A DNA stretch of 64,000 nt from Escherichia phage UP19: sequence record OX638288, one strand, 5' to 3'. Under the pieces are notes generated by a model. The model ran no database searches, was not told the DNA's origin, and saw only the letters and a list, made by a program, of their open reading frames with translations. Below are positions 5,046 to 44,244 of this stretch, piece by piece. A program made the translations under genes and the position numbers. Numbering within the stretch: position 1 is the stretch's first letter; every line of letters starts with the position of its first letter.

Positions 5046-5278
5046 GTATTGCGATTTATATTAAATCCGAGTCATGCGATTCTTATCTGTATTCCTATGA
5101 CACCGGAACATCAGAAGAGAAAATCAAAGAAGATTTAGAAACCGACTTGGATATGTTCCGTCCTATTTCTGACTATATGGTCCAAGTGTCTGATAGTGAA
5201 AGCCCGTCATTAGAAAATAGACTTGAATTTTTAATGAGCGATATTTTTAACCAATCATGGAAACGTGATGATGAGTAA
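5042..5278 (+). CDS. hypothetical acidic protein (78 aa)
   Basis: ORF track; overlapping start with upstream stop. Confidence 0.5.
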   Translation: MSIAIYIKSESCDSYLYSYDTGTSEEKIKEDLETDLDMFRPISDYMVQVSDSESPSLENRLEFLMSDIFNQSWKRDDE

Positions 5279-5720
5279 GAAAGTTAAAGAACTATCAGCC
5301 GGTATTTTGTTCATGACTGTCGATAAAGAATTGGTTATGGGTCGTGTAACAGGTTCTCGTAATCCAGAGAATATGCGTCATAAATGGGACATTCCTAAAG
5401 GCCATGTCGAACCAGGTGAAGAGCCTATTCAAGCTGCTATGCGTGAAACCGAAGAAGAGATTGGATTCACTGCATATGACCCTGCGTTCCTGAAAGACCT
5501 AGGTGAGTTCAAATATTCTAGCAATAAGAATCTACATCTGTTCTTATATACTGTGCCTGTCGAACACGAGCAGTTCAAGGATTGCAAATGTACCGCTTAT
5601 CATACGTTCCCTGACGGCCGTACGATTCCTGAATTCGATGCCTTTGCCTTGATTAAACGTCCGCAATGGGAATATGTCATGGGCCCGTCGATGTTTAAGG
5701 TTTTAGATTCGCTCTTTTGA
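5265..5720 (+). CDS. nudE: Nudix hydrolase (NudE/e.1-like)
   Basis: Nudix box GHVEPGEEPIQAAMRETEEEIGF; located immediately upstream of e as in T4. Confidence 0.75.
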   Translation: MMMSKKVKELSAGILFMTVDKELVMGRVTGSRNPENMRHKWDIPKGHVEPGEEPIQAAMRETEEEIGFTAYDPAFLKDLGEFKYSSNKNLHLFLYTVPVEHEQFKDCKCTAYHTFPDGRTIPEFDAFALIKRPQWEYVMGPSMFKVLDSLF

Positions 5721-5748
5721 TATAAATACCTCCTATAATCAGGAGGTA
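5721..5748 (+). promoter_or_regulatory. late promoter TATAAATA (5721-5728) plus hairpin 5727-5748 sequestering the e RBS
   Basis: exact TATAAATA; arms TACCTCCT and AGGAGGTA are reverse complements; same arrangement described for T4 gene e. Confidence 0.6.
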
Positions 5749-5750
5749 TT

Positions 5751-6245
5751 ATGGATATTTTTGATATGTTACGTCAAGACGAAGGTCTTGATTTAAATCT
5801 TTATAAAGACACTGAAGGTTATTGGACTATTGGTATTGGCCAGTTAGTTACCAAGAACCCATCTAAAGATGTTGCTCGTGCCGAACTTGACAAACTTATG
5901 GGTCGGGTTTGCAATGGACGTATTACTATGGCTGAAGCTGAACAACTCTTTAACCGTTCAGTGGAAAATGCTCGTAGAGCTATAATGCGTAATCCTAAAT
6001 TGAAACCGGTTTATGATGTGCTGGACGAAGTTCGTCGTTGCGCGCTGATTAATATGGTCTTTCAAATGGGTGAAGCTGGTGTCGCTGGATTTACCAACTC
6101 TCTGCGTATGCTCCAGCAGAAACGTTGGGATGATGCCGCAGTTAACCTGGTGCAGTCCCGTTGGTATAAGCAGACTCCGAATCGCGCTAAGCGAGTTATC
6201 TCTACATTTAAAACAGGAACTTGGAAAGCATATGAAAACCTATAA
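5751..6245 (+). CDS. e: lysozyme (endolysin), T4 e-type, 164 aa
   Basis: protein [13 protein letters not shown]...[10 protein letters not shown] closely matches T4 lysozyme as recalled. Confidence 0.95.
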
Positions 6246-6501
6246 AGAATTTTTGGCCGAATCTCAACTGAACGAAAACACTGACCTAGACCGTATGACA
6301 TTCCTGGCTAAGAAAGGCGGCTTCGAATTTAAAGCCATTAAGAAAGTAAATGGGTATTCTTTTGAAGTCGGTGAATATACCTTTGGTAACAAGGGTGATG
6401 GCCAGTGGCAAATTGTTAAAAACGGCAAAGAAGTAGACTACCTTTTCGGTAAGAAACTTAGTGACATTGCTAAAATAATGGGCGAATATTCTAAAAAATA
6501 G
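6232..6501 (+). CDS. internal-protein-like, N-terminal capsid targeting sequence [10 protein letters not shown] (89 aa)
   Basis: ORF track 6070..6501 trimmed to ATG overlapping e stop; N-terminus matches T4 IP capsid-targeting consensus MKTYQEFIAE. Confidence 0.7.
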
Positions 6502-6529
6502 TTTACATCTCCTGTATGCATGATATTAT
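6501..6529 (+). promoter_or_regulatory. T4-type early promoter (GTTTAC 6501-6506, TATTAT 6524-6529) inside inverted repeat CTCCTGTA/TACAGGAG
   Basis: sequence read; inverted repeat 6509-6516 and 6542-6549 pairs the promoter region with the denV SD. Confidence 0.6.
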
Positions 6530-6557
6530 AGACCTATCAATTACAGGAGATTACAAA

Positions 6558-6974
6558 ATGACTCGTATCAACCTTACCTTAGTATCTGAATTGGCTGACC
6601 AACACTTAATGGCTGAATACCGTGAATTACCACGTGTTTTCGGTGCAGTTCGTAAGCATGTTGCTAACGGTAAACGTGTTCGTGATTTTAAAATCAGCCC
6701 TACTTTTATCCTTGGTACAGGCCATGTTACATTCTTTTATGATAAGCTTGAATTTTTACGTAAGCGACAAATTGAGCTTATAGCCGAATGTTTAAAACGT
6801 GGATTCAATATCAAGGATACTACTGTCCAAGACATTTCCGATATTCCACAGGAATTCCGTGGTGATTATATTCCTCACGAAGCTTCTATCGCTATTTCAC
6901 AAGCCCGTTTGGATGAAAAAATTGCACAGCGTCCTACCTGGTACAAATATTATGGTAAGGCTATTTACGCTTAA
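6558..6974 (+). CDS. denV: endonuclease V (pyrimidine dimer DNA glycosylase), 138 aa
   Basis: protein [31 protein letters not shown]... appears near-identical to T4 DenV as recalled. Confidence 0.95.
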
Positions 6975-7016
6975 TTAAATCCGTGATAGAATACTTCTAT
7001 CAACTTAAGGAATAAT

Positions 7017-7316
7017 ATGAAAACTTATCAAGAATTTATTACAGAAGCCAAAGCTCCTAAAGCATTCCAAATAGGTGTCCAAGGCACCTTAGACCAAGAA
7101 TATGTTGATGCTATTGTAGCAAGCCTCGGTAAACAGGGCGTACAAGTGGATTTGGTTGATTTTACTAAAGGTAATACTTTTAATATTGTTACATCTAAAG
7201 GCTCTTTAGCTAAAGTTAAAAAGGCCTTTGGTGTAGCCCAAGCATACGAAATCGACCACTCTGAATTAGAAAATAAAGGTCGCCAGAATACAATTAAAGG
7301 TTCTGGTTCTTTCTAA
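7017..7316 (+). CDS. internal-protein-like with capsid targeting sequence MKTYQEFITEA (99 aa)
   Basis: ORF track; N-terminus matches T4 internal-protein capsid-targeting sequence. Confidence 0.75.
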   Translation: MKTYQEFITEAKAPKAFQIGVQGTLDQEYVDAIVASLGKQGVQVDLVDFTKGNTFNIVTSKGSLAKVKKAFGVAQAYEIDHSELENKGRQNTIKGSGSF

Positions 7317-7476
7317 TAAAGGCAAGCCGACCCTCTCCTCATGAACGTCGCATCCTCTGAGTGATGGACCTTTCCCTACCTGTAATAAGGTCGAGCCCAA
7401 GTGCGGTAAAGGGTTTACATACGGATACATGGATGAATTATGTGCCAAGGAACGGCCCCACAACTAAGAGACCACT

Positions 7477-8004
7477 ATGAAATTTTTAACTCCCATTTAT
7501 CTAACCTTAATGCACGCCTTCGCTGAACGCGCCATTGAACGTTTAGACTCAGACCAATATACCTGGTACGAACCCACTTCAAGAATGCAAGAGTTTGGTA
7601 CTCTTCGACTTGACGGCGGGCGTCAAACAGGTAAAACAAGTGCCCTTGCCCAGTTCGCAGCTGATTGGGTTTCCAAGGGTAATGATGTGATTGTTATGTC
7701 AAGTTCTTCGCATCGCTCACGAGAAATCTGTAATATAATAAAAAGGGTTTCTAAGGCCCAACCACACCTTCAAGTAGAAGGTCCTGGGTTTGTTGTATAT
7801 GATACCATGCGTTCATTTTTAGACGAAGATAACTTCCATAAGTATCGTGGTCTATCAGTTACTCGATTATTGATTATTATCGAAGAGCCAATGCGCCTTC
7901 CATCGATGGATAAGTTCTATGAAGCTTACCAGGTAATGATTAACAAATTTATGTGCCAGGGTTCTAAACCTCTGCCACTGTTCTTTGTGATAGGAATGCA
8001 ATGA
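7477..8004 (+). CDS. P-loop NTPase-like protein (175 aa)
   Basis: Walker A GGRQTGKTS; Walker-B-like LLIIIEE. Confidence 0.55.
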   Translation: MKFLTPIYLTLMHAFAERAIERLDSDQYTWYEPTSRMQEFGTLRLDGGRQTGKTSALAQFAADWVSKGNDVIVMSSSSHRSREICNIIKRVSKAQPHLQVEGPGFVVYDTMRSFLDEDNFHKYRGLSVTRLLIIIEEPMRLPSMDKFYEAYQVMINKFMCQGSKPLPLFFVIGMQ

Positions 8005-8297
8005 TGACTGATGAAGAGCTTTTTGAGTTCTGCTATTTCTCACGTAAGGTTCGAAGAGAGGACCTTACTGCAAATTTCGAATATGCTTATTTCTATCCAT
8101 TAGAATATGTATTCATGACAGGGCCCTTTAAGGGCTCTCGTTTTAGATGTCATGCCCCAAGCATCCGATTAATGAAACAGGTTCCTTACTTCACTCTCGA
8201 GTTCATCTCAGGCCCGTGTAAGGGTATTATTACTCGCAGTCTCTTGACGTATGACCAAGAGATTCATATGATTTCTGACTGGAAAAAATATGTCTAA
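8001..8297 (+). CDS. hypothetical protein (98 aa)
   Basis: ORF track; ATGA overlap. Confidence 0.5.
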   Translation: MMTDEELFEFCYFSRKVRREDLTANFEYAYFYPLEYVFMTGPFKGSRFRCHAPSIRLMKQVPYFTLEFISGPCKGIITRSLLTYDQEIHMISDWKKYV

Positions 8298-8508: not shown

Positions 8509-8783
8509 TTGAAGATATCAAAGGTTACAAGCCACATACCGACGATAAAATCGGTAAAGTGAATGCCATTAAAGATGCTGAAGTCCGATTAGGCTTAATC
8601 TTTAAAGCATTAGAAGAAGAATATGTTGAAGCCTTTACATGCTCAGGTGTTGATAAAATGAGTGATGAAGAATTCAACCTCACCCATGAACGCCTCGCCC
8701 AGATTCGTACGGCAATCGAACGCTTGAAAGAAGCTTCTATGTGGGCGTGTCGTTCCGTTTTCCAGCCCGAGGAAAAATACTAA
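8505..8783 (+). CDS. hypothetical protein (92 aa)
   Basis: ORF track; ATGA overlap. Confidence 0.5.
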   Translation: MIEDIKGYKPHTDDKIGKVNAIKDAEVRLGLIFKALEEEYVEAFTCSGVDKMSDEEFNLTHERLAQIRTAIERLKEASMWACRSVFQPEEKY

Positions 8784-8788
8784 AAGCA

Positions 8789-8817
8789 GTTTACATCTCC
8801 TGTAGACGTGGTACTAT
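8789..8817 (+). promoter_or_regulatory. T4-type early promoter (GTTTAC 8789-8794, TACTAT 8812-8817) within inverted repeat CTCCTGTAG/CTACAGGAG
   Basis: 17-nt spacer; arms at 8797-8805 and 8829-8837, the latter containing the regB SD. Confidence 0.6.
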
Positions 8818-8845
8818 AGACCTATCAACTACAGGAGATTACAAA

Positions 8846-9304
8846 ATGTCAGAAATTAATTCAGAAGTATTCATCCGCCGCAACAAATTACGTCGACAGT
8901 TCGAAACCGAATTTCGTGAACTTAACGCGTCCATCAAAAAAGCCGCCATTAAGAGTGGTGTCCCAGCTTTCTTTATTAAGTACTCTAATCACTTGTTGGA
9001 CCGTGCTATCCAACGTGAAATTGACGAAAAATATGTTTTCTCTTTGTTCAAGAAGCTCCACAATCATGTTAAAGAAATCCATGAATTTTTAATCCAGGAG
9101 CCTCTTCCTGACGTAGAATCTGAAATTGTCCCGGGTAAAGTGTATCGACCACTGCGTCTCGAGATTACCGATAAAACCTTATGGTTAGGTATGACCGTAG
9201 ATCGTAAACATCCTGATAAAGGATATTCATTAAAATGCCGTATGGCATTTGTTAACTCTAAACGTTTAGAAGGTAAAACCAGCACTAAAGTAATCTATCT
9301 TTAA
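8846..9304 (+). CDS. regB: RegB site-specific endoribonuclease (152 aa)
   Basis: ORF track 8741..9304 trimmed; EVFIRRNKLRR...LLDRAIQREIDE...RPLRLEITD matches T4 RegB as recalled. Confidence 0.85.
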   Translation: MSEINSEVFIRRNKLRRQFETEFRELNASIKKAAIKSGVPAFFIKYSNHLLDRAIQREIDEKYVFSLFKKLHNHVKEIHEFLIQEPLPDVESEIVPGKVYRPLRLEITDKTLWLGMTVDRKHPDKGYSLKCRMAFVNSKRLEGKTSTKVIYL

Positions 9305-17733: not shown

Positions 17734-17762
17734 GTTTACATCTCCAGTAGAAATGATACTAT
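17734..17762 (+). promoter_or_regulatory. T4-type early promoter (GTTTAC 17734-17739, TACTAT 17757-17762) within inverted repeat CTCCAGTAG/CTACTGGAG
   Basis: arms at 17742-17750 and 17774-17782, the latter covering the SD. Confidence 0.6.
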
Positions 17763-17788
17763 AGACCTATCAACTACTGGAGGTTATC

Positions 17789-40009: not shown

Positions 40010-40069
40010 GCAATAGAAATTTATTAAAAATAGTGTATAATGTACCTACATTCACTTGAGGAACAGATA

Positions 40070-41743
40070 ATGAAAAAGGTTGTTATTTTAGGCGCAGGTC
40101 TTGGCTCACGGTTGTATCCAATTACTAACGAAATCCCAAAGGTATTGGTTAACTACAAACAACATACGGTATTAAAACATTTGTATGATTTGTATAGTAA
40201 CCAATCAGATGAAATTATTCTGGTTATTCACAGCAAATTTAACGACCTCGTTAAAGGCTATATTAAATCCATTAACATGATTACTGGTGATAAGCCTAAA
40301 TTCACTATTCGTAACGTTGATGTTGCTAATGGTTCAGCTCATGCTATCGATTGCATTGCCGAAGATATCATTGGCCATAATGTCCTGTTTAACTGGTGTG
40401 ACATCATTCCTATCGGTCATAAAGTTGAATGGGGTAACGACTATTGTTATACCTATGGAACTGACTGTCGCTTTACATTTGAAGAACCGTACTTACGTGA
40501 AATTGGTACCGGTGGCGGTGTAGTTGGTTTGTATCAGGTAGCCAATTGGACAGGTTTCGACCGTTCTAATTATGGCGAAGACCTTGCTGATAACCTGGAT
40601 TCAATGGTCTATTTGACTGAACGTAAACTGGATTTTGTAGTTGATGTCGGTGACAAATTGAAACTTGCCAAGGCCCATGAAGATTCTGAAATTAACCGTG
40701 AATTTAATAAATTAGAGTTCACCGAGAATCTGGCTATTAAAGTACCAACTAACGAATTAGGTAAAGAAATTCAATCTAAAGAAATCAATTGGTATAATTC
40801 TATTGATTCTGAATTCGTTCCTAGCATTGTAGACTTTTCTCCAGGCGAATTCATTAAAATGGAACGTATCTTTGGTCGTACCATGGCAGATGCCTACCGG
40901 TTTATGTCCAAAGAAACTAAAGTCCTCATGGTTTATAAGGTCATTAGTGCATTACGTTCATTCGGTGGAACTATCGATAATCCGTCCGATGAGCAATGGT
41001 ATTCCGATGTTAAGAAAGAAGTGTTGGACAAGGTCCTTATTCGTAATGCTTCTATTGCCGGATTGATTGAAGGCTTTGCTCCACAGGGCATTACCCATGT
41101 TAACGATTTCAAAGTAGGCGACCCCGAAAAACTTCTCCGCCATGCACTAGAAATTCTGTCTGAACATAAAGAACCGTACCAACTTATTCATGGCGACCCG
41201 CACTACAGTAATATTATGCTGTCGGACGAAGGTGATATTAAAATCATCGACCCACGTGGTTATTTCGGTAATAGTTCTAAAGGCCCTGCGATTTATGATG
41301 AAGCTAAGGTGCTTTATTCTATCGATGGCTATGACAAATTTAACTCAGACCCTCTATGGGGTGGATTAACTCGTAACGGAACTCGTGTATTCGTTGATAT
41401 CGAAAAGGTTATGCCTTTAGACGATATTCCTATGTGCACATTTAAGCACAAGCTCTGGATTGCTGTTATTTGGATGGCGCTGGCAGGTTACTTTAAGAAT
41501 AACCCTCTGAAAGCTCTGGGTGCTTATTATAACGGTTTGTATCAACTGAGTGTGCTGCTGAAGCGGCATCCTCGTAAGCGTAAGCTTATTACTGGTGAAT
41601 TTGTCGATGAAGTTCGTGACCCTATCACGGCTCAAATTATTACTCGTTGTCCTGATAAGTGGGTTTTGCTTGACCAGGAAACTGGTGTAAAATATAAACC
41701 TACAGGTTCTACTGAGCTCCACAAACAATGGAAGAAAATTTAA
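40070..41743 (+). CDS. bifunctional nucleotidyltransferase/kinase-like protein (557 aa)
   Basis: ORF track 40040..41743 trimmed; N-terminal ILGAGLGSRLYPITNEIPKVLV; C-terminal HGDPHYSNIM and IIDPRG. Confidence 0.75.
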   Translation: MKKVVILGAGLGSRLYPITNEIPKVLVNYKQHTVLKHLYDLYSNQSDEIILVIHSKFNDLVKGYIKSINMITGDKPKFTIRNVDVANGSAHAIDCIAEDIIGHNVLFNWCDIIPIGHKVEWGNDYCYTYGTDCRFTFEEPYLREIGTGGGVVGLYQVANWTGFDRSNYGEDLADNLDSMVYLTERKLDFVVDVGDKLKLAKAHEDSEINREFNKLEFTENLAIKVPTNELGKEIQSKEINWYNSIDSEFVPSIVDFSPGEFIKMERIFGRTMADAYRFMSKETKVLMVYKVISALRSFGGTIDNPSDEQWYSDVKKEVLDKVLIRNASIAGLIEGFAPQGITHVNDFKVGDPEKLLRHALEILSEHKEPYQLIHGDPHYSNIMLSDEGDIKIIDPRGYFGNSSKGPAIYDEAKVLYSIDGYDKFNSDPLWGGLTRNGTRVFVDIEKVMPLDDIPMCTFKHKLWIAVIWMALAGYFKNNPLKALGAYYNGLYQLSVLLKRHPRKRKLITGEFVDEVRDPITAQIITRCPDKWVLLDQETGVKYKPTGSTELHKQWKKI

Positions 41744-42126: not shown

Positions 42127-42659
42127 ATCCAAAAATCATTGTTATAGACGGCCCGGATAATTCCGGGAAGTCCACTTTAATTAAAAATCTGTTATCCAAT
42201 AAGAAATACCGCCTTATTGATTTTCCTAAAAAGATTAATGGCAAGTGTATTTCATTAGGAACTGATAACGATAAGGCTTTAGTTGAAACTCTGTATAAGT
42301 TTTTAGACCCTAATTTCGTTTATATCCTTGACCGTGGTTATCCAAGTAATATTGTTTACTCAGGATTCCTTCGTGGTGAAATGGACCCTTATGTAGAACT
42401 GGAAGATTGGAAAGGGTTTAAATCCGAATTTAACGTTATCGAGGTTATTTTAACTCGCAATCCATTAGACGAAGACTTCGAAGACGACCTTATTAAATTA
42501 ACCAAAGATGAGTTCAACCTAACTATCCGGCAATACGAAACATGTTTTGAAAACGTGTTTAAAATCTTAAATCATGACGGCCATAATAATTTGCTTAATG
42601 TTGATATGGTAGAATTAAAACGTCTGAACGAATATATTGAAAATAAGGTGAATAAATGA
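42123..42659 (+). CDS. P-loop (d)NMP-kinase-like protein (178 aa)
   Basis: Walker A IVIDGPDNSGKST resembles thymidylate/deoxynucleotide kinase family. Confidence 0.65.
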   Translation: MNPKIIVIDGPDNSGKSTLIKNLLSNKKYRLIDFPKKINGKCISLGTDNDKALVETLYKFLDPNFVYILDRGYPSNIVYSGFLRGEMDPYVELEDWKGFKSEFNVIEVILTRNPLDEDFEDDLIKLTKDEFNLTIRQYETCFENVFKILNHDGHNNLLNVDMVELKRLNEYIENKVNK

Positions 42660-43354
42660 AACACATTACCGCTGTTAGTTTTGAAAATGCATTTAAACAA
42701 ATGAACGAAGAAATCCTGGAAGCTCCACAGTTTGCAGTTGATTCTCGTATCGGACGTTGTTATGAAATTGGTTCTGCTTCGGTAGAAGTACTGGATGCAA
42801 GCACCTATAAATTCACCGACCCACGTATCAATCGTATTAGTTATGAATATGCCGAATCCTTTTGGAAATTTATGATTTCTGGTGGTACTGACGCTGCCGA
42901 AGCATTTAAGGAATACCCTAATGTTGCTAAGTTCATTGATAAGCCGAAAAGTGATGTATTGCCTGCAAACTTCAACACTTTCTATGGACCTCGAATTGTG
43001 GCCCAACTCCCAGCCCTACTTAAAGAGCTTAAAGAAAAGGCTAACTCGCGAAGAGTTGTGTTCCAGATTCTCCAAGAACAAGACCAAGCCCTCCTTGATT
43101 CTGACGAATCCTTAGAATATCCTTGCACCGATTCGGTAACGTATTATATTCGTGACGGACGTTTGTATGCACACACCCATATGCGTTCACAAAACTGCGC
43201 CGTTGTTATGCAGCTGGATTTCTATCTGCAGGGTAAACTGATGGCATTTATTGCTGAACAGTGTGGTGTCGGTTTAGGTACATATTCCCACACCATGGTA
43301 AGTGCACACGTGTTTGAACGTGATTTTGACTACGTCCGAGGTTTCCTGAAATGA
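42656..43354 (+). CDS. 42: thymidylate-synthase-fold pyrimidine hydroxymethylase (gene 42 position), divergent from T4 gp42 (232 aa)
   Basis: NSRRVVFQI, EYPCTDSVTYYIRDGRLYAHTHMRSQNCA and SAHVFERDF align with T4 gp42 motifs as recalled. Confidence 0.7.
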   Translation: MKHITAVSFENAFKQMNEEILEAPQFAVDSRIGRCYEIGSASVEVLDASTYKFTDPRINRISYEYAESFWKFMISGGTDAAEAFKEYPNVAKFIDKPKSDVLPANFNTFYGPRIVAQLPALLKELKEKANSRRVVFQILQEQDQALLDSDESLEYPCTDSVTYYIRDGRLYAHTHMRSQNCAVVMQLDFYLQGKLMAFIAEQCGVGLGTYSHTMVSAHVFERDFDYVRGFLK

Positions 43355-44244
43355 GTTTGTTTATCGTTCCTATTTTCAGTATGCGTAGTTACGAAACAGG
43401 TGAATATGCCGTCCTTAAGGACGGCAATTTTCAACTCCATTTAAATCGTGCTCGTCCAGGTGATTATCTGGCTTATCCTAGAAATTCGAGCGATATCAAA
43501 GAATGCATTGAATTATTCCCAGAACTGAATTTCGTACCACTTTGGTATAAAGAAAATGCTTATGAAACCCGTAAACATTTCTGGTCTGAAAATGAGTTTG
43601 TAGTCGATTCACTAATCGAATACTATGATTGCTCAGGACTGGTGACCGATATCACCGGTTATGATGGTGCTCATACTGTACAATTCAACTTTAATATCAC
43701 AATGGACCCTGAAGTTCCTCGTTATTATATCGACGAGTTCATTGATATTGATGTGGCTTCAGTTGAACGTTCACTTTATACTACAGTCTTGAATCAATGC
43801 CAGAAAGACGTCCTGGTGTCACGAGGTGCATCCTCTGATAAGATTTTTGTAGACCAAAAGGTAATTAATCCTGCAGTAATTGAGCGTTACTCTGAAGGTC
43901 TAGCGCCTATTAAAATTGATGGTATTTTCCATCCATTCCGTATTTCGGATAAGTGTTATCAATTCGAAAGAGTTGTAGACCAAGCTGCCGCTGAAGGTGC
44001 TCGTCTTTATATCACCGACCCTAATGATTCATTTAAGCGCGAAGACTATCGTCCTGATGTAGAGATTATTAAATTCAAACCGAGTAAGGTTGAATATTAT
44101 CAAATTCTGAAATCAAGACCACATATCATTTATCATGAGAACCCAGGTTTAGTATTCCATCCTGGTCTGGCTGAATTCATTTATTTTGGTGCCAATATTC
44201 ATTCTGAATACGAAATGCCACGTTATGAGGACGTAGTATGCTAG
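43351..44244 (+). CDS. hypothetical protein in beta-glucosyltransferase position; candidate DNA-modifying transferase (297 aa)
   Basis: ORF track; positional replacement of T4 beta-gt between 42 and uvsX; no recognisable similarity to T4 beta-gt as recalled. Confidence 0.6.
   Translation: MSLFIVPIFSMRSYETGEYAVLKDGNFQLHLNRARPGDYLAYPRNSSDIKECIELFPELNFVPLWYKENAYETRKHFWSENEFVVDSLIEYYDCSGLVTDITGYDGAHTVQFNFNITMDPEVPRYYIDEFIDIDVASVERSLYTTVLNQCQKDVLVSRGASSDKIFVDQKVINPAVIERYSEGLAPIKIDGIFHPFRISDKCYQFERVVDQAAAEGARLYITDPNDSFKREDYRPDVEIIKFKPSKVEYYQILKSRPHIIYHENPGLVFHPGLAEFIYFGANIHSEYEMPRYEDVVC

Follow-up and report, generated by a model that had tools for sequence, protein, structure and literature searches.

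Two genes with T4-type capsid-targeting leaders and unrelated bodies flank denV in Escherichia phage UP19: candidate injected anti-defense proteins

Capsid-targeting leaders on either side of denV

A 64,000-nucleotide stretch of Escherichia phage UP19 (sequence record OX638288; hereafter the window) contains two short open reading frames (ORFs) whose products begin with the capsid-targeting sequence (CTS) of T4-type internal proteins (IPs). ORF1 (6232..6501; an 89-aa precursor) and ORF2 (7017..7316; a 99-aa precursor), both given with their stop codons, lie on the + strand on either side of denV (6558..6974, +), the gene for endonuclease V, a pyrimidine-dimer glycosylase (Pfam Pyr_excise, 1.4e-14; phrog_1183, 1e-62). 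An initial annotation had placed two internal-protein genes at these positions flanking denV and had likened their N termini to the T4 CTS; both points were borne out. IPII and IPIII of T4, translated from NC_000866, both start with MKTYQEFIAE. The CTS of ORF2 reads MKTYQEFITE (7017..7046, +), with a predicted cut after Glu10 (I-T-E), and that of ORF1 (6232..6261, +) has a predicted cut by the prohead protease gp21 after Glu10 (L-A-E).

A six-frame scan of the whole window found exactly two CTS-type N termini, those of ORF1 and ORF2. Because the motif is expected by chance only about 1e-6 times in 64 kb (9e-7 analytically) and had no match in 200 Markov-simulated windows, we regard the observation as confirmed. 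The residues that mark the CTS of T4-type internal proteins (Tyr4, Phe7, Leu/Ile8, and Glu10) are all retained in both leaders. Amber-suppression work on the T4 IPIII leader assigned the greatest weight for targeting to positions 4 and 7 and for processing by gp21 to positions 8 and 10; the first ten IPIII residues are enough for packaging, and T4 packages, processes, and injects foreign proteins to which the leader has been fused (PMC9026906). At the DNA level, the leaders of ORF1 and ORF2 are 81% identical (repeat D4), and the ORF1 leader is 83 to 90% identical to the leaders of other phages, including those without a match to its body.

Cleavage after Glu10 would leave small, basic products of 79 aa, 9.0 kDa, and pI 9.1 for ORF1 and of 89 aa, 9.5 kDa, and pI 9.0 for ORF2, as compared with 90 aa, 9.8 kDa, and pI 9.6 for mature IPII (IPII*). 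Mature IPIII (IPIII*) is likewise small and basic. ORF1 also has a second motif, L-N-E, which ends at Glu15, is conserved across the family, and lies in a low-confidence linker of the predicted structure; the mature N terminus may therefore be residue 16, in which case the product would have 74 aa. In T4 IPI, the cut follows I-T-E19, a position confirmed by the solved structure of IPI* (PDB 2JUB), whose chain spans residues 20 to 95. A Winklervirus homologue of ORF1 (P0013, from Serratia phage X20) has a degenerate N terminus, MTLLESYLQTYTQPLTES, in place of MKTY.EF and retains Thr-Tyr and an L-T-E site; the leader would thus have either diverged or been lost in that lineage.

The surrounding DNA is a T4-like (Tevenvirinae) segment, of which positions 5200 to 8100 share ~94% DNA identity with Dhakavirus phages IME281 and JS10. 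Upstream of ORF1 lie nudE (5265 to 5720), a T4 late-promoter motif (TATAAATA; 5721..5728, +) placed 23 nt upstream of gene e, and gene e itself (5751..6245, +), which encodes a T4-type lysozyme (Pfam Phage_lysozyme, 8e-13). The last 14 nt of e (6232 to 6245) overlap the start of ORF1. Downstream of ORF2, a 160-nt noncoding spacer (7317..7476, assigned to no strand) leads to vs.8 (7477 to 8004). The order nudE-e-[ip]-denV-[ip]-vs.8 agrees with that of JS10, IME281, UPEC07, and T4 and identifies the region as one of the two polymorphic Ip loci; here, denV is a conserved anchor separating two ip slots. UPEC07 has the same layout as the window (e, an ORF1-family ip gene, denV, and ip7). T4 IPII and IPIII (Ip2 and Ip3, encoded in the order e-ipIII-ipII-denV) share with ORF1 and ORF2 the locus, the orientation, the late-promoter context, a near-identical 10-residue CTS, an L/I-x-E cleavage motif, and small basic products. 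The arrangement differs in that T4 has both ip genes upstream of denV and none downstream, whereas the window has one on each side.

Two unrelated protein families

As the initial annotation had proposed, the bodies behind the two leaders are unrelated: BLASTP without the CTS returned only scraps at E > 4, and profile-profile comparison aligned just 12 leader residues. Structure prediction, which that annotation had put forward as a check, gave folds that differ between the two proteins. The AlphaFold2 model of ORF1 (predicted local distance difference test score [pLDDT], 84) consists of a helix, a five-stranded antiparallel sheet, and a second helix. The ORF2 model (pLDDT, 76) has a ferredoxin-like core, beta-alpha-beta-beta-alpha-beta, to which a further helix is added at the C terminus.

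ORF2 (body family F1) is an Ip7 protein, with a match to phrog_2667, "internal head protein," over residues 1 to 99 (5e-43); the Ip7 family also has members in T2, VR7/VR25, and JS10. The product is 100% identical in amino acid sequence to JS10 EpJS10_0110, which is annotated as "internal head protein." Against named ip7 products, identity is 94 to 95% to those of VR7 and VR25 (95% for VR7) and 50% over 98% of the length to T2 Ip7. In T2, the gene is located at the second Ip locus, with 57B/ip5 on one side and trna.4 on the other; therefore, the same cassette is found in both loci.

ORF1 (body family F5) is a member of PHROG 8765, "internal virion protein," with a match (5e-36) over residues 1 to 89 of a 92-position profile. 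Members of this family, to which ORF1 is similar over its full length, are carried by Pectobacterium phage PM2, Edwardsiella phage PEi20, Enterobacter phage CIP9, Serratia phages CHI14 and X20, and E. coli phages UPEC07 and DK-13; like ORF1, they follow e directly and have a conserved core that includes EVDYLF. Matches covering at least 80% of ORF1 were present in 41 phage records. The closest relative in an isolated phage is that of Klebsiella phage KLB31 (77% amino acid identity), followed among E. coli phages by UPEC07, TH55, and DK-13 (75.6%), with a range of 64 to 77% over isolate-phage copies. The exact ORF1 sequence was found only on two short metagenome contigs, both with the same e-ORF1-denV context, and its 99% cluster, which is confined to metagenomes, includes a copy on a 173-kb contig. 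An exhaustive search of 1.84 billion representative proteins with the ORF1-family profile gave nine matches, and the credible ones were all small with a CTS-like start; the ORF1 body thus defines a narrow, phage-only family. Three long matches in that search were Big_13 Ig-repeat proteins that aligned to the beta-hairpin segment, and we regard them as spurious.

A fused form of ORF1 occurs in Pectobacterium phage PM2 (L029, 2437 to 2940), where an ORF1-family gene is joined in frame to a second Ip body to give a protein of 167 aa. The second part begins with a degenerate leader, MNESFLNE, in which the cleavage motif (F-L-N-E, of the L-x-E type) is kept, and cleavage of the fusion may thus still yield two separate proteins.

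Searches for more distant relatives were negative. Pfam gave nothing for ORF1 and only subthreshold noise for ORF2, PADLOC gave no match for either protein, and Foldseek searches against viral models retrieved only members of the query family itself. Sequence searches of the PDB with the family profiles found no relative for ORF2, 2JUB included, and nothing usable for ORF1; no solved structure was found for IPII or IPIII. The described architecture of IPI*, with beta sheets between N- and C-terminal helices, resembles the ORF1 model, and the two share a GDG(Q)W hairpin motif. A remote homology between ORF1 and IPI was nevertheless rejected, since hhalign aligned the leader only, with a probability of 3%.

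Strong purifying selection and conserved cores characterize both families. The median ratio of nonsynonymous to synonymous substitution rates (dN/dS) outside the leader is ~0.08 among ORF1-family members and ~0.06 among those of the ORF2 family. With dN/dS values of ~0.06 to 0.08 within families, the variability of the locus is a matter of cassette replacement, not of fast sequence evolution.

Cassette edges and a conserved spacer

The wider variability of the locus was assessed in a sample of 79 denV-centered loci from IMG/VR plus T4, JS10, IME281, UPEC07, and the window. CTS-type ORFs stood next to denV in 36 of these loci, all from T4-like enterobacterial phages, and numbered 78 (68 unique), on both sides of denV and all in the orientation of denV. 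Behind a leader common to all, the 36 loci carry 15 body families, combined in 32 arrangements, which agrees with the earlier description of the locus as hypervariable. The critical leader residues are invariant in 66 to 68 of the 68 unique proteins across the 15 families, an invariance that is partly by construction because most of those positions were already fixed or limited in the pattern used for the search. Families differ in slot preference: IpIII-like proteins occur on either side of denV, Ip7-like proteins mostly downstream, and the ORF1 family always upstream. Some close relatives have no ip family on one side of denV. Variation of this kind is well documented, with PeSL-like sequences reported at two highly variable IP loci by Repoila et al. 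(1994) and more than 30 IP variants known (Comeau 2007), both as stated in PMC2839356.

Comparison of the window with related phages illustrates such replacement. The flanking genes are 90 to 99% identical overall to those of IME281 and JS10, and the same is true of the ORF2 body (96 to 100%) and the 160-nt spacer (96 to 99%), while the ORF1 body has no counterpart in either phage. Against UPEC07, identity is 70 to 74% for nudE, e, and denV, 75% for the ORF1 body, 95% for the ORF2 body, and 96% for the spacer. Local mosaicism is also evident relative to T4: denV is 91% identical to T4 denV at the nucleotide level, whereas nudE and e are only 67 to 72% identical to their T4 counterparts. This contrast gives denV and its PeSL the appearance of a module that was exchanged on its own.

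On the left, the junction between e and the leader, TGGAAAGCATATGAAAAC, is common to the window and IME281 (2 mismatches in the overlap; L001, 2533 to 2546) and is followed by different bodies; in JS10, ipIII is inserted at this junction. The DNA that encodes the leader therefore serves as a flank for recombination. On its right, the upstream slot is bounded by a PeSL-type cassette ahead of denV (6494..6560, +), a 67-nt repeat whose 10-bp stem-loop contains both an early promoter (TTTACA-16-TATTAT) and the Shine-Dalgarno sequence; the fold has a z-score of -4.2. T4, JS10, and IME281 retain this element, as the window does, behind differing IP cassettes. A second copy of the 67-nt repeat (88% identity) lies at 8782 to 8848, upstream of regB, and a third, at 17735 to 17783 and upstream of a third gene, carries a compensatory stem change (CTCCAGTA/TACTGGAG); stem length across the copies is 10 to 11 bp. 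Before ORF2 there is an early-promoter-like site (TTTACG-17-TAGAAT) with a degenerate PeSL core, followed by the ribosome-binding site AAGGA (6964..7011, +; promoter scan and repeat D2). This core is 70 to 73% identical to the two PeSL copies. A 132-aa CTS protein of JS10 (L002, 3224 to 3622) and IME281 (L001, 2533 to 2931) ends in ...NWMKTYK*, a truncated remnant of a second leader that abuts the PeSL and looks like the scar of a deleted downstream cassette.

In summary of these edges, the cassettes are bounded by the leader sequence, the PeSL repeat, and the 160-nt spacer, and they fit recombination via leader-coding DNA and PeSL-type elements. The PeSL mobile cassettes of T4-type phages (Arbiol 2010; Comeau 2014) are similar in that a promoter/stem-loop bounds a variable cassette and recurs at other gene boundaries. 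Unlike in those systems, the left flank in the window is the CTS-coding sequence itself and not a PeSL.

The spacer closes the downstream slot on its right: in all 36 loci, it follows the last ip gene or comes directly after denV. It occurs in 985 phage records and is 96 to 99% identical across the Dhakavirus and Gaprivervirus phages JS10, IME281, and UPEC07, making it more conserved than synonymous sites of the adjacent ip7, whose divergence in the same comparisons is 0.07 to 0.23. T4 annotates the equivalent sequence as the first 40 codons of vs.8, and vs.8 of the window starts at the equivalent of T4 Met41. The frame of the conserved blocks differs between T4 and the window, which led us to reject a conserved small ORF within the spacer. 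Nor did RNA-oriented analyses of the spacer give a signal: there was no Rfam match, the minimum free energy was not significant (z-score, -0.5), and RNAalifold gave only three short hairpins with single compensatory changes and no convincing covariation.

With respect to expression, the late-promoter motif has four matches in the 64-kb window, and the one before e (5721 to 5728) is the sole match near and upstream of both ip genes. In T4 and JS10, the motif likewise occurs in this region only before e, with bona fide IP genes following, so the known ipIII and ipII are likewise downstream of the e late promoter. Because the ORF1 start codon lies 14 nt inside e, the two genes are probably cotranscribed and translationally coupled. 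No terminator-like sites were predicted on the + strand between 5721 and 7316.

Proposed packaging and injection, and possible targets

CTS-tagged, polymorphic internal proteins between e and denV have been described since 1994 (Repoila 1994; Comeau 2007; work of the Black laboratory; Silas 2025), and the view that they counter restriction is current in the literature; the finding is thus already known. Ip1, Ip2, and Ip3 are inhibitors of GmrSD type IV restriction enzymes, a different one in each case, and the same kind of activity has been proposed for the other proteins of the two Ip loci, which would make these loci an inhibitor hotspot (Silas et al. 2025, PMC12373910). For T4 IPII and IPIII, the targets are the GmrSD enzymes of ECOR21 and ECOR17, respectively. 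IPIII is required on ECOR17 and functions without its leader when supplied inside the cell (Srikant et al.). The delivery logic of T4 IPI* (PDB 2JUB), an inhibitor of the GmrSD of CT596, is the same as that suggested here for ORF1 and ORF2.

We consider it probable (roughly 0.8) that ORF1 and ORF2 are ordinary T4-type internal proteins, which would be injected into the host and may inhibit a defense nuclease. The leaders, cleavage motifs, locus, family memberships, selection pattern, and cassette structure on which this interpretation draws can be read directly from the DNA. Confidence differs among its components. Packaging and processing of both products as CTS-directed virion proteins is very probable, an anti-defense function is favored by a small margin over its absence, and a GmrSD-type enzyme as the target is a tentative assignment that we hold at less than even odds. 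The initial annotation had proposed candidate injected anti-defense effectors, a reading that is sound as far as the sequence goes and is supported as the working hypothesis of the field.

By analogy with T4, the leader would dock each precursor onto the scaffolding core of the prohead during head assembly. gp21 would then cut after Glu10 (L-A-E in ORF1 and I-T-E in ORF2), and in ORF1 perhaps also after L-N-E15. The head interior would then contain free, basic products of small size, 79 or 74 aa for ORF1 and 89 aa for ORF2, with a pI of ~9. Ejected with the DNA, these mature proteins could be active in the cytoplasm ahead of phage gene expression, inhibiting a host defense nuclease, with each unrelated body specific to a different enzyme variant. 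The locus itself would evolve by whole-cassette swaps, for which the ~30-nt leader-coding sequence, the PeSL, and the 160-nt spacer may serve as shared recombination flanks.

Several observations weigh against this interpretation. The bodies of ORF1 and ORF2 have no detectable similarity to those of IPII and IPIII (BLASTP, E > 2 only), and neither resembles Ip1, Ip2, or Ip3 by BLASTP or hhalign, leaving them without homology to an established GmrSD inhibitor. Furthermore, a screen of ip4 to ip10 against eight active GmrSD variants gave no reproducible interaction, and a signal between ip7 and CLS_011 failed on repeat (PMC12373910). Eight variants are a small sample, because the GmrSD family is very diverse; the ORF1 family is outside the named ips in that screen, as far as the text of the report shows. 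The gp21/gp22 head module lies outside the 64-kb window, and we infer from the ~94% nucleotide identity to Dhakavirus genomes that the phage encodes the gp21 protease and gp22 core. ORF2 is preceded by an early-type promoter and has no late-promoter motif of its own, so its late expression would rest on read-through, which is plausible. Finally, core docking, gp21 cleavage, head retention, ejection, and defense inhibition are carried over to ORF1 and ORF2 from the T4 precedents, and the literature searched yielded no proteomic report on either the ORF1 family or Ip7.

The modification status of the phage DNA bears on which enzymes might be targeted. The window encodes a gene-42-like enzyme of the thymidylate synthase family (42656 to 43354), followed by a 297-aa ORF without a Pfam match (43351 to 44244), and a 567-aa fusion of an NTP-transferase and an aminoglycoside-kinase-like domain (40040 to 41743) of the RB69p052 type. 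The RB69 fusion of this type is listed as a probable UDP-arabinose synthesis protein. Given the gene-42-like enzyme and the fusion, the phage DNA is probably sugar modified and therefore a substrate for type IV enzymes, and the cluster appears to resemble RB69-type arabinosyl-cytosine modification rather than T4 glucosylation. The gene content thus makes it plausible that the genome is sugar modified and has to be shielded from type IV enzymes.

As packaged and injected effectors, the two proteins may alternatively have targets other than GmrSD: other nucleases or sensors of arabinosyl-type DNA, other first-response defenses, or host factors affected in an Alt-like takeover. The negative ip7 screen, the lack of relationship to Ip1 to Ip3, and the seemingly arabinose-type rather than glucose-type modification pathway are in keeping with such targets, as is Alt itself, a capsid-delivered protein that serves host takeover and demonstrates that delivered proteins need not be restriction inhibitors (PMC9026906). 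We nonetheless judge this alternative somewhat unlikely, as all three Ips with known targets act on GmrSD-family enzymes and BrxU, a member of the same family, cuts arabinosylated DNA. A mainly structural function, in which basic proteins aid core or head assembly or neutralize and organize packaged DNA with no dedicated anti-defense target, would suit the pI of ~9 of both mature products, the ~1000 IP molecules embedded in T4 DNA, and the slower head assembly and smaller bursts of T4 IPIII mutants (PMC9026906). It is less compatible with the dispensability of T4 IPs on laboratory hosts (PMC9026906), with the variation among close relatives in the families carried (some with none on one side of denV), which fits accessory genes, and with the unrelated folds of the two proteins, which argue against one shared role; we therefore consider it improbable.

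Still less probable, to the point that we give it little weight, is that the leader is a mere recombination scar on ordinary cytoplasmic early proteins that are not packaged. In keeping with a scar, the DNA encoding the leader behaves like a flank for recombination, and both the early-type promoter of ORF2 and the degenerate N terminus of the Winklervirus protein P0013 would be accommodated. This explanation has to contend, however, with the near-complete invariance of the critical leader residues (subject to the effect of the search pattern noted above) and with the sufficiency of ten residues for packaging foreign proteins in T4. Injected internal proteins that inhibit a defense nuclease remain the reading that we prefer.

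As a discovery, this work adds little, the anti-restriction hypothesis being the view already in print. ORF2 is identical to an annotated gene, and ORF1 is, as judged from its sequence, a diverged allele of PHROG 8765 (77% identity or less to isolated phages). We suggest with considerable reservation that the ORF1 family, Ip7, or both may inhibit a defense not yet linked to internal proteins, such as a nuclease or sensor of arabinosyl-cytosine, and, separately, that the 160-nt spacer may be an RNA or DNA element governing cassette expression or exchange. The practical value of the locus is as a pointer to candidate anti-defense proteins. Ip7 and PHROG 8765 are reasonable entries for anti-defense screens, especially against enzymes that attack arabinosylated DNA, because both are compact, well folded, phage restricted, and under strong purifying selection. 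The comparative map, with its 15 families, 32 arrangements, and defined cassette edges, could guide such a screen.

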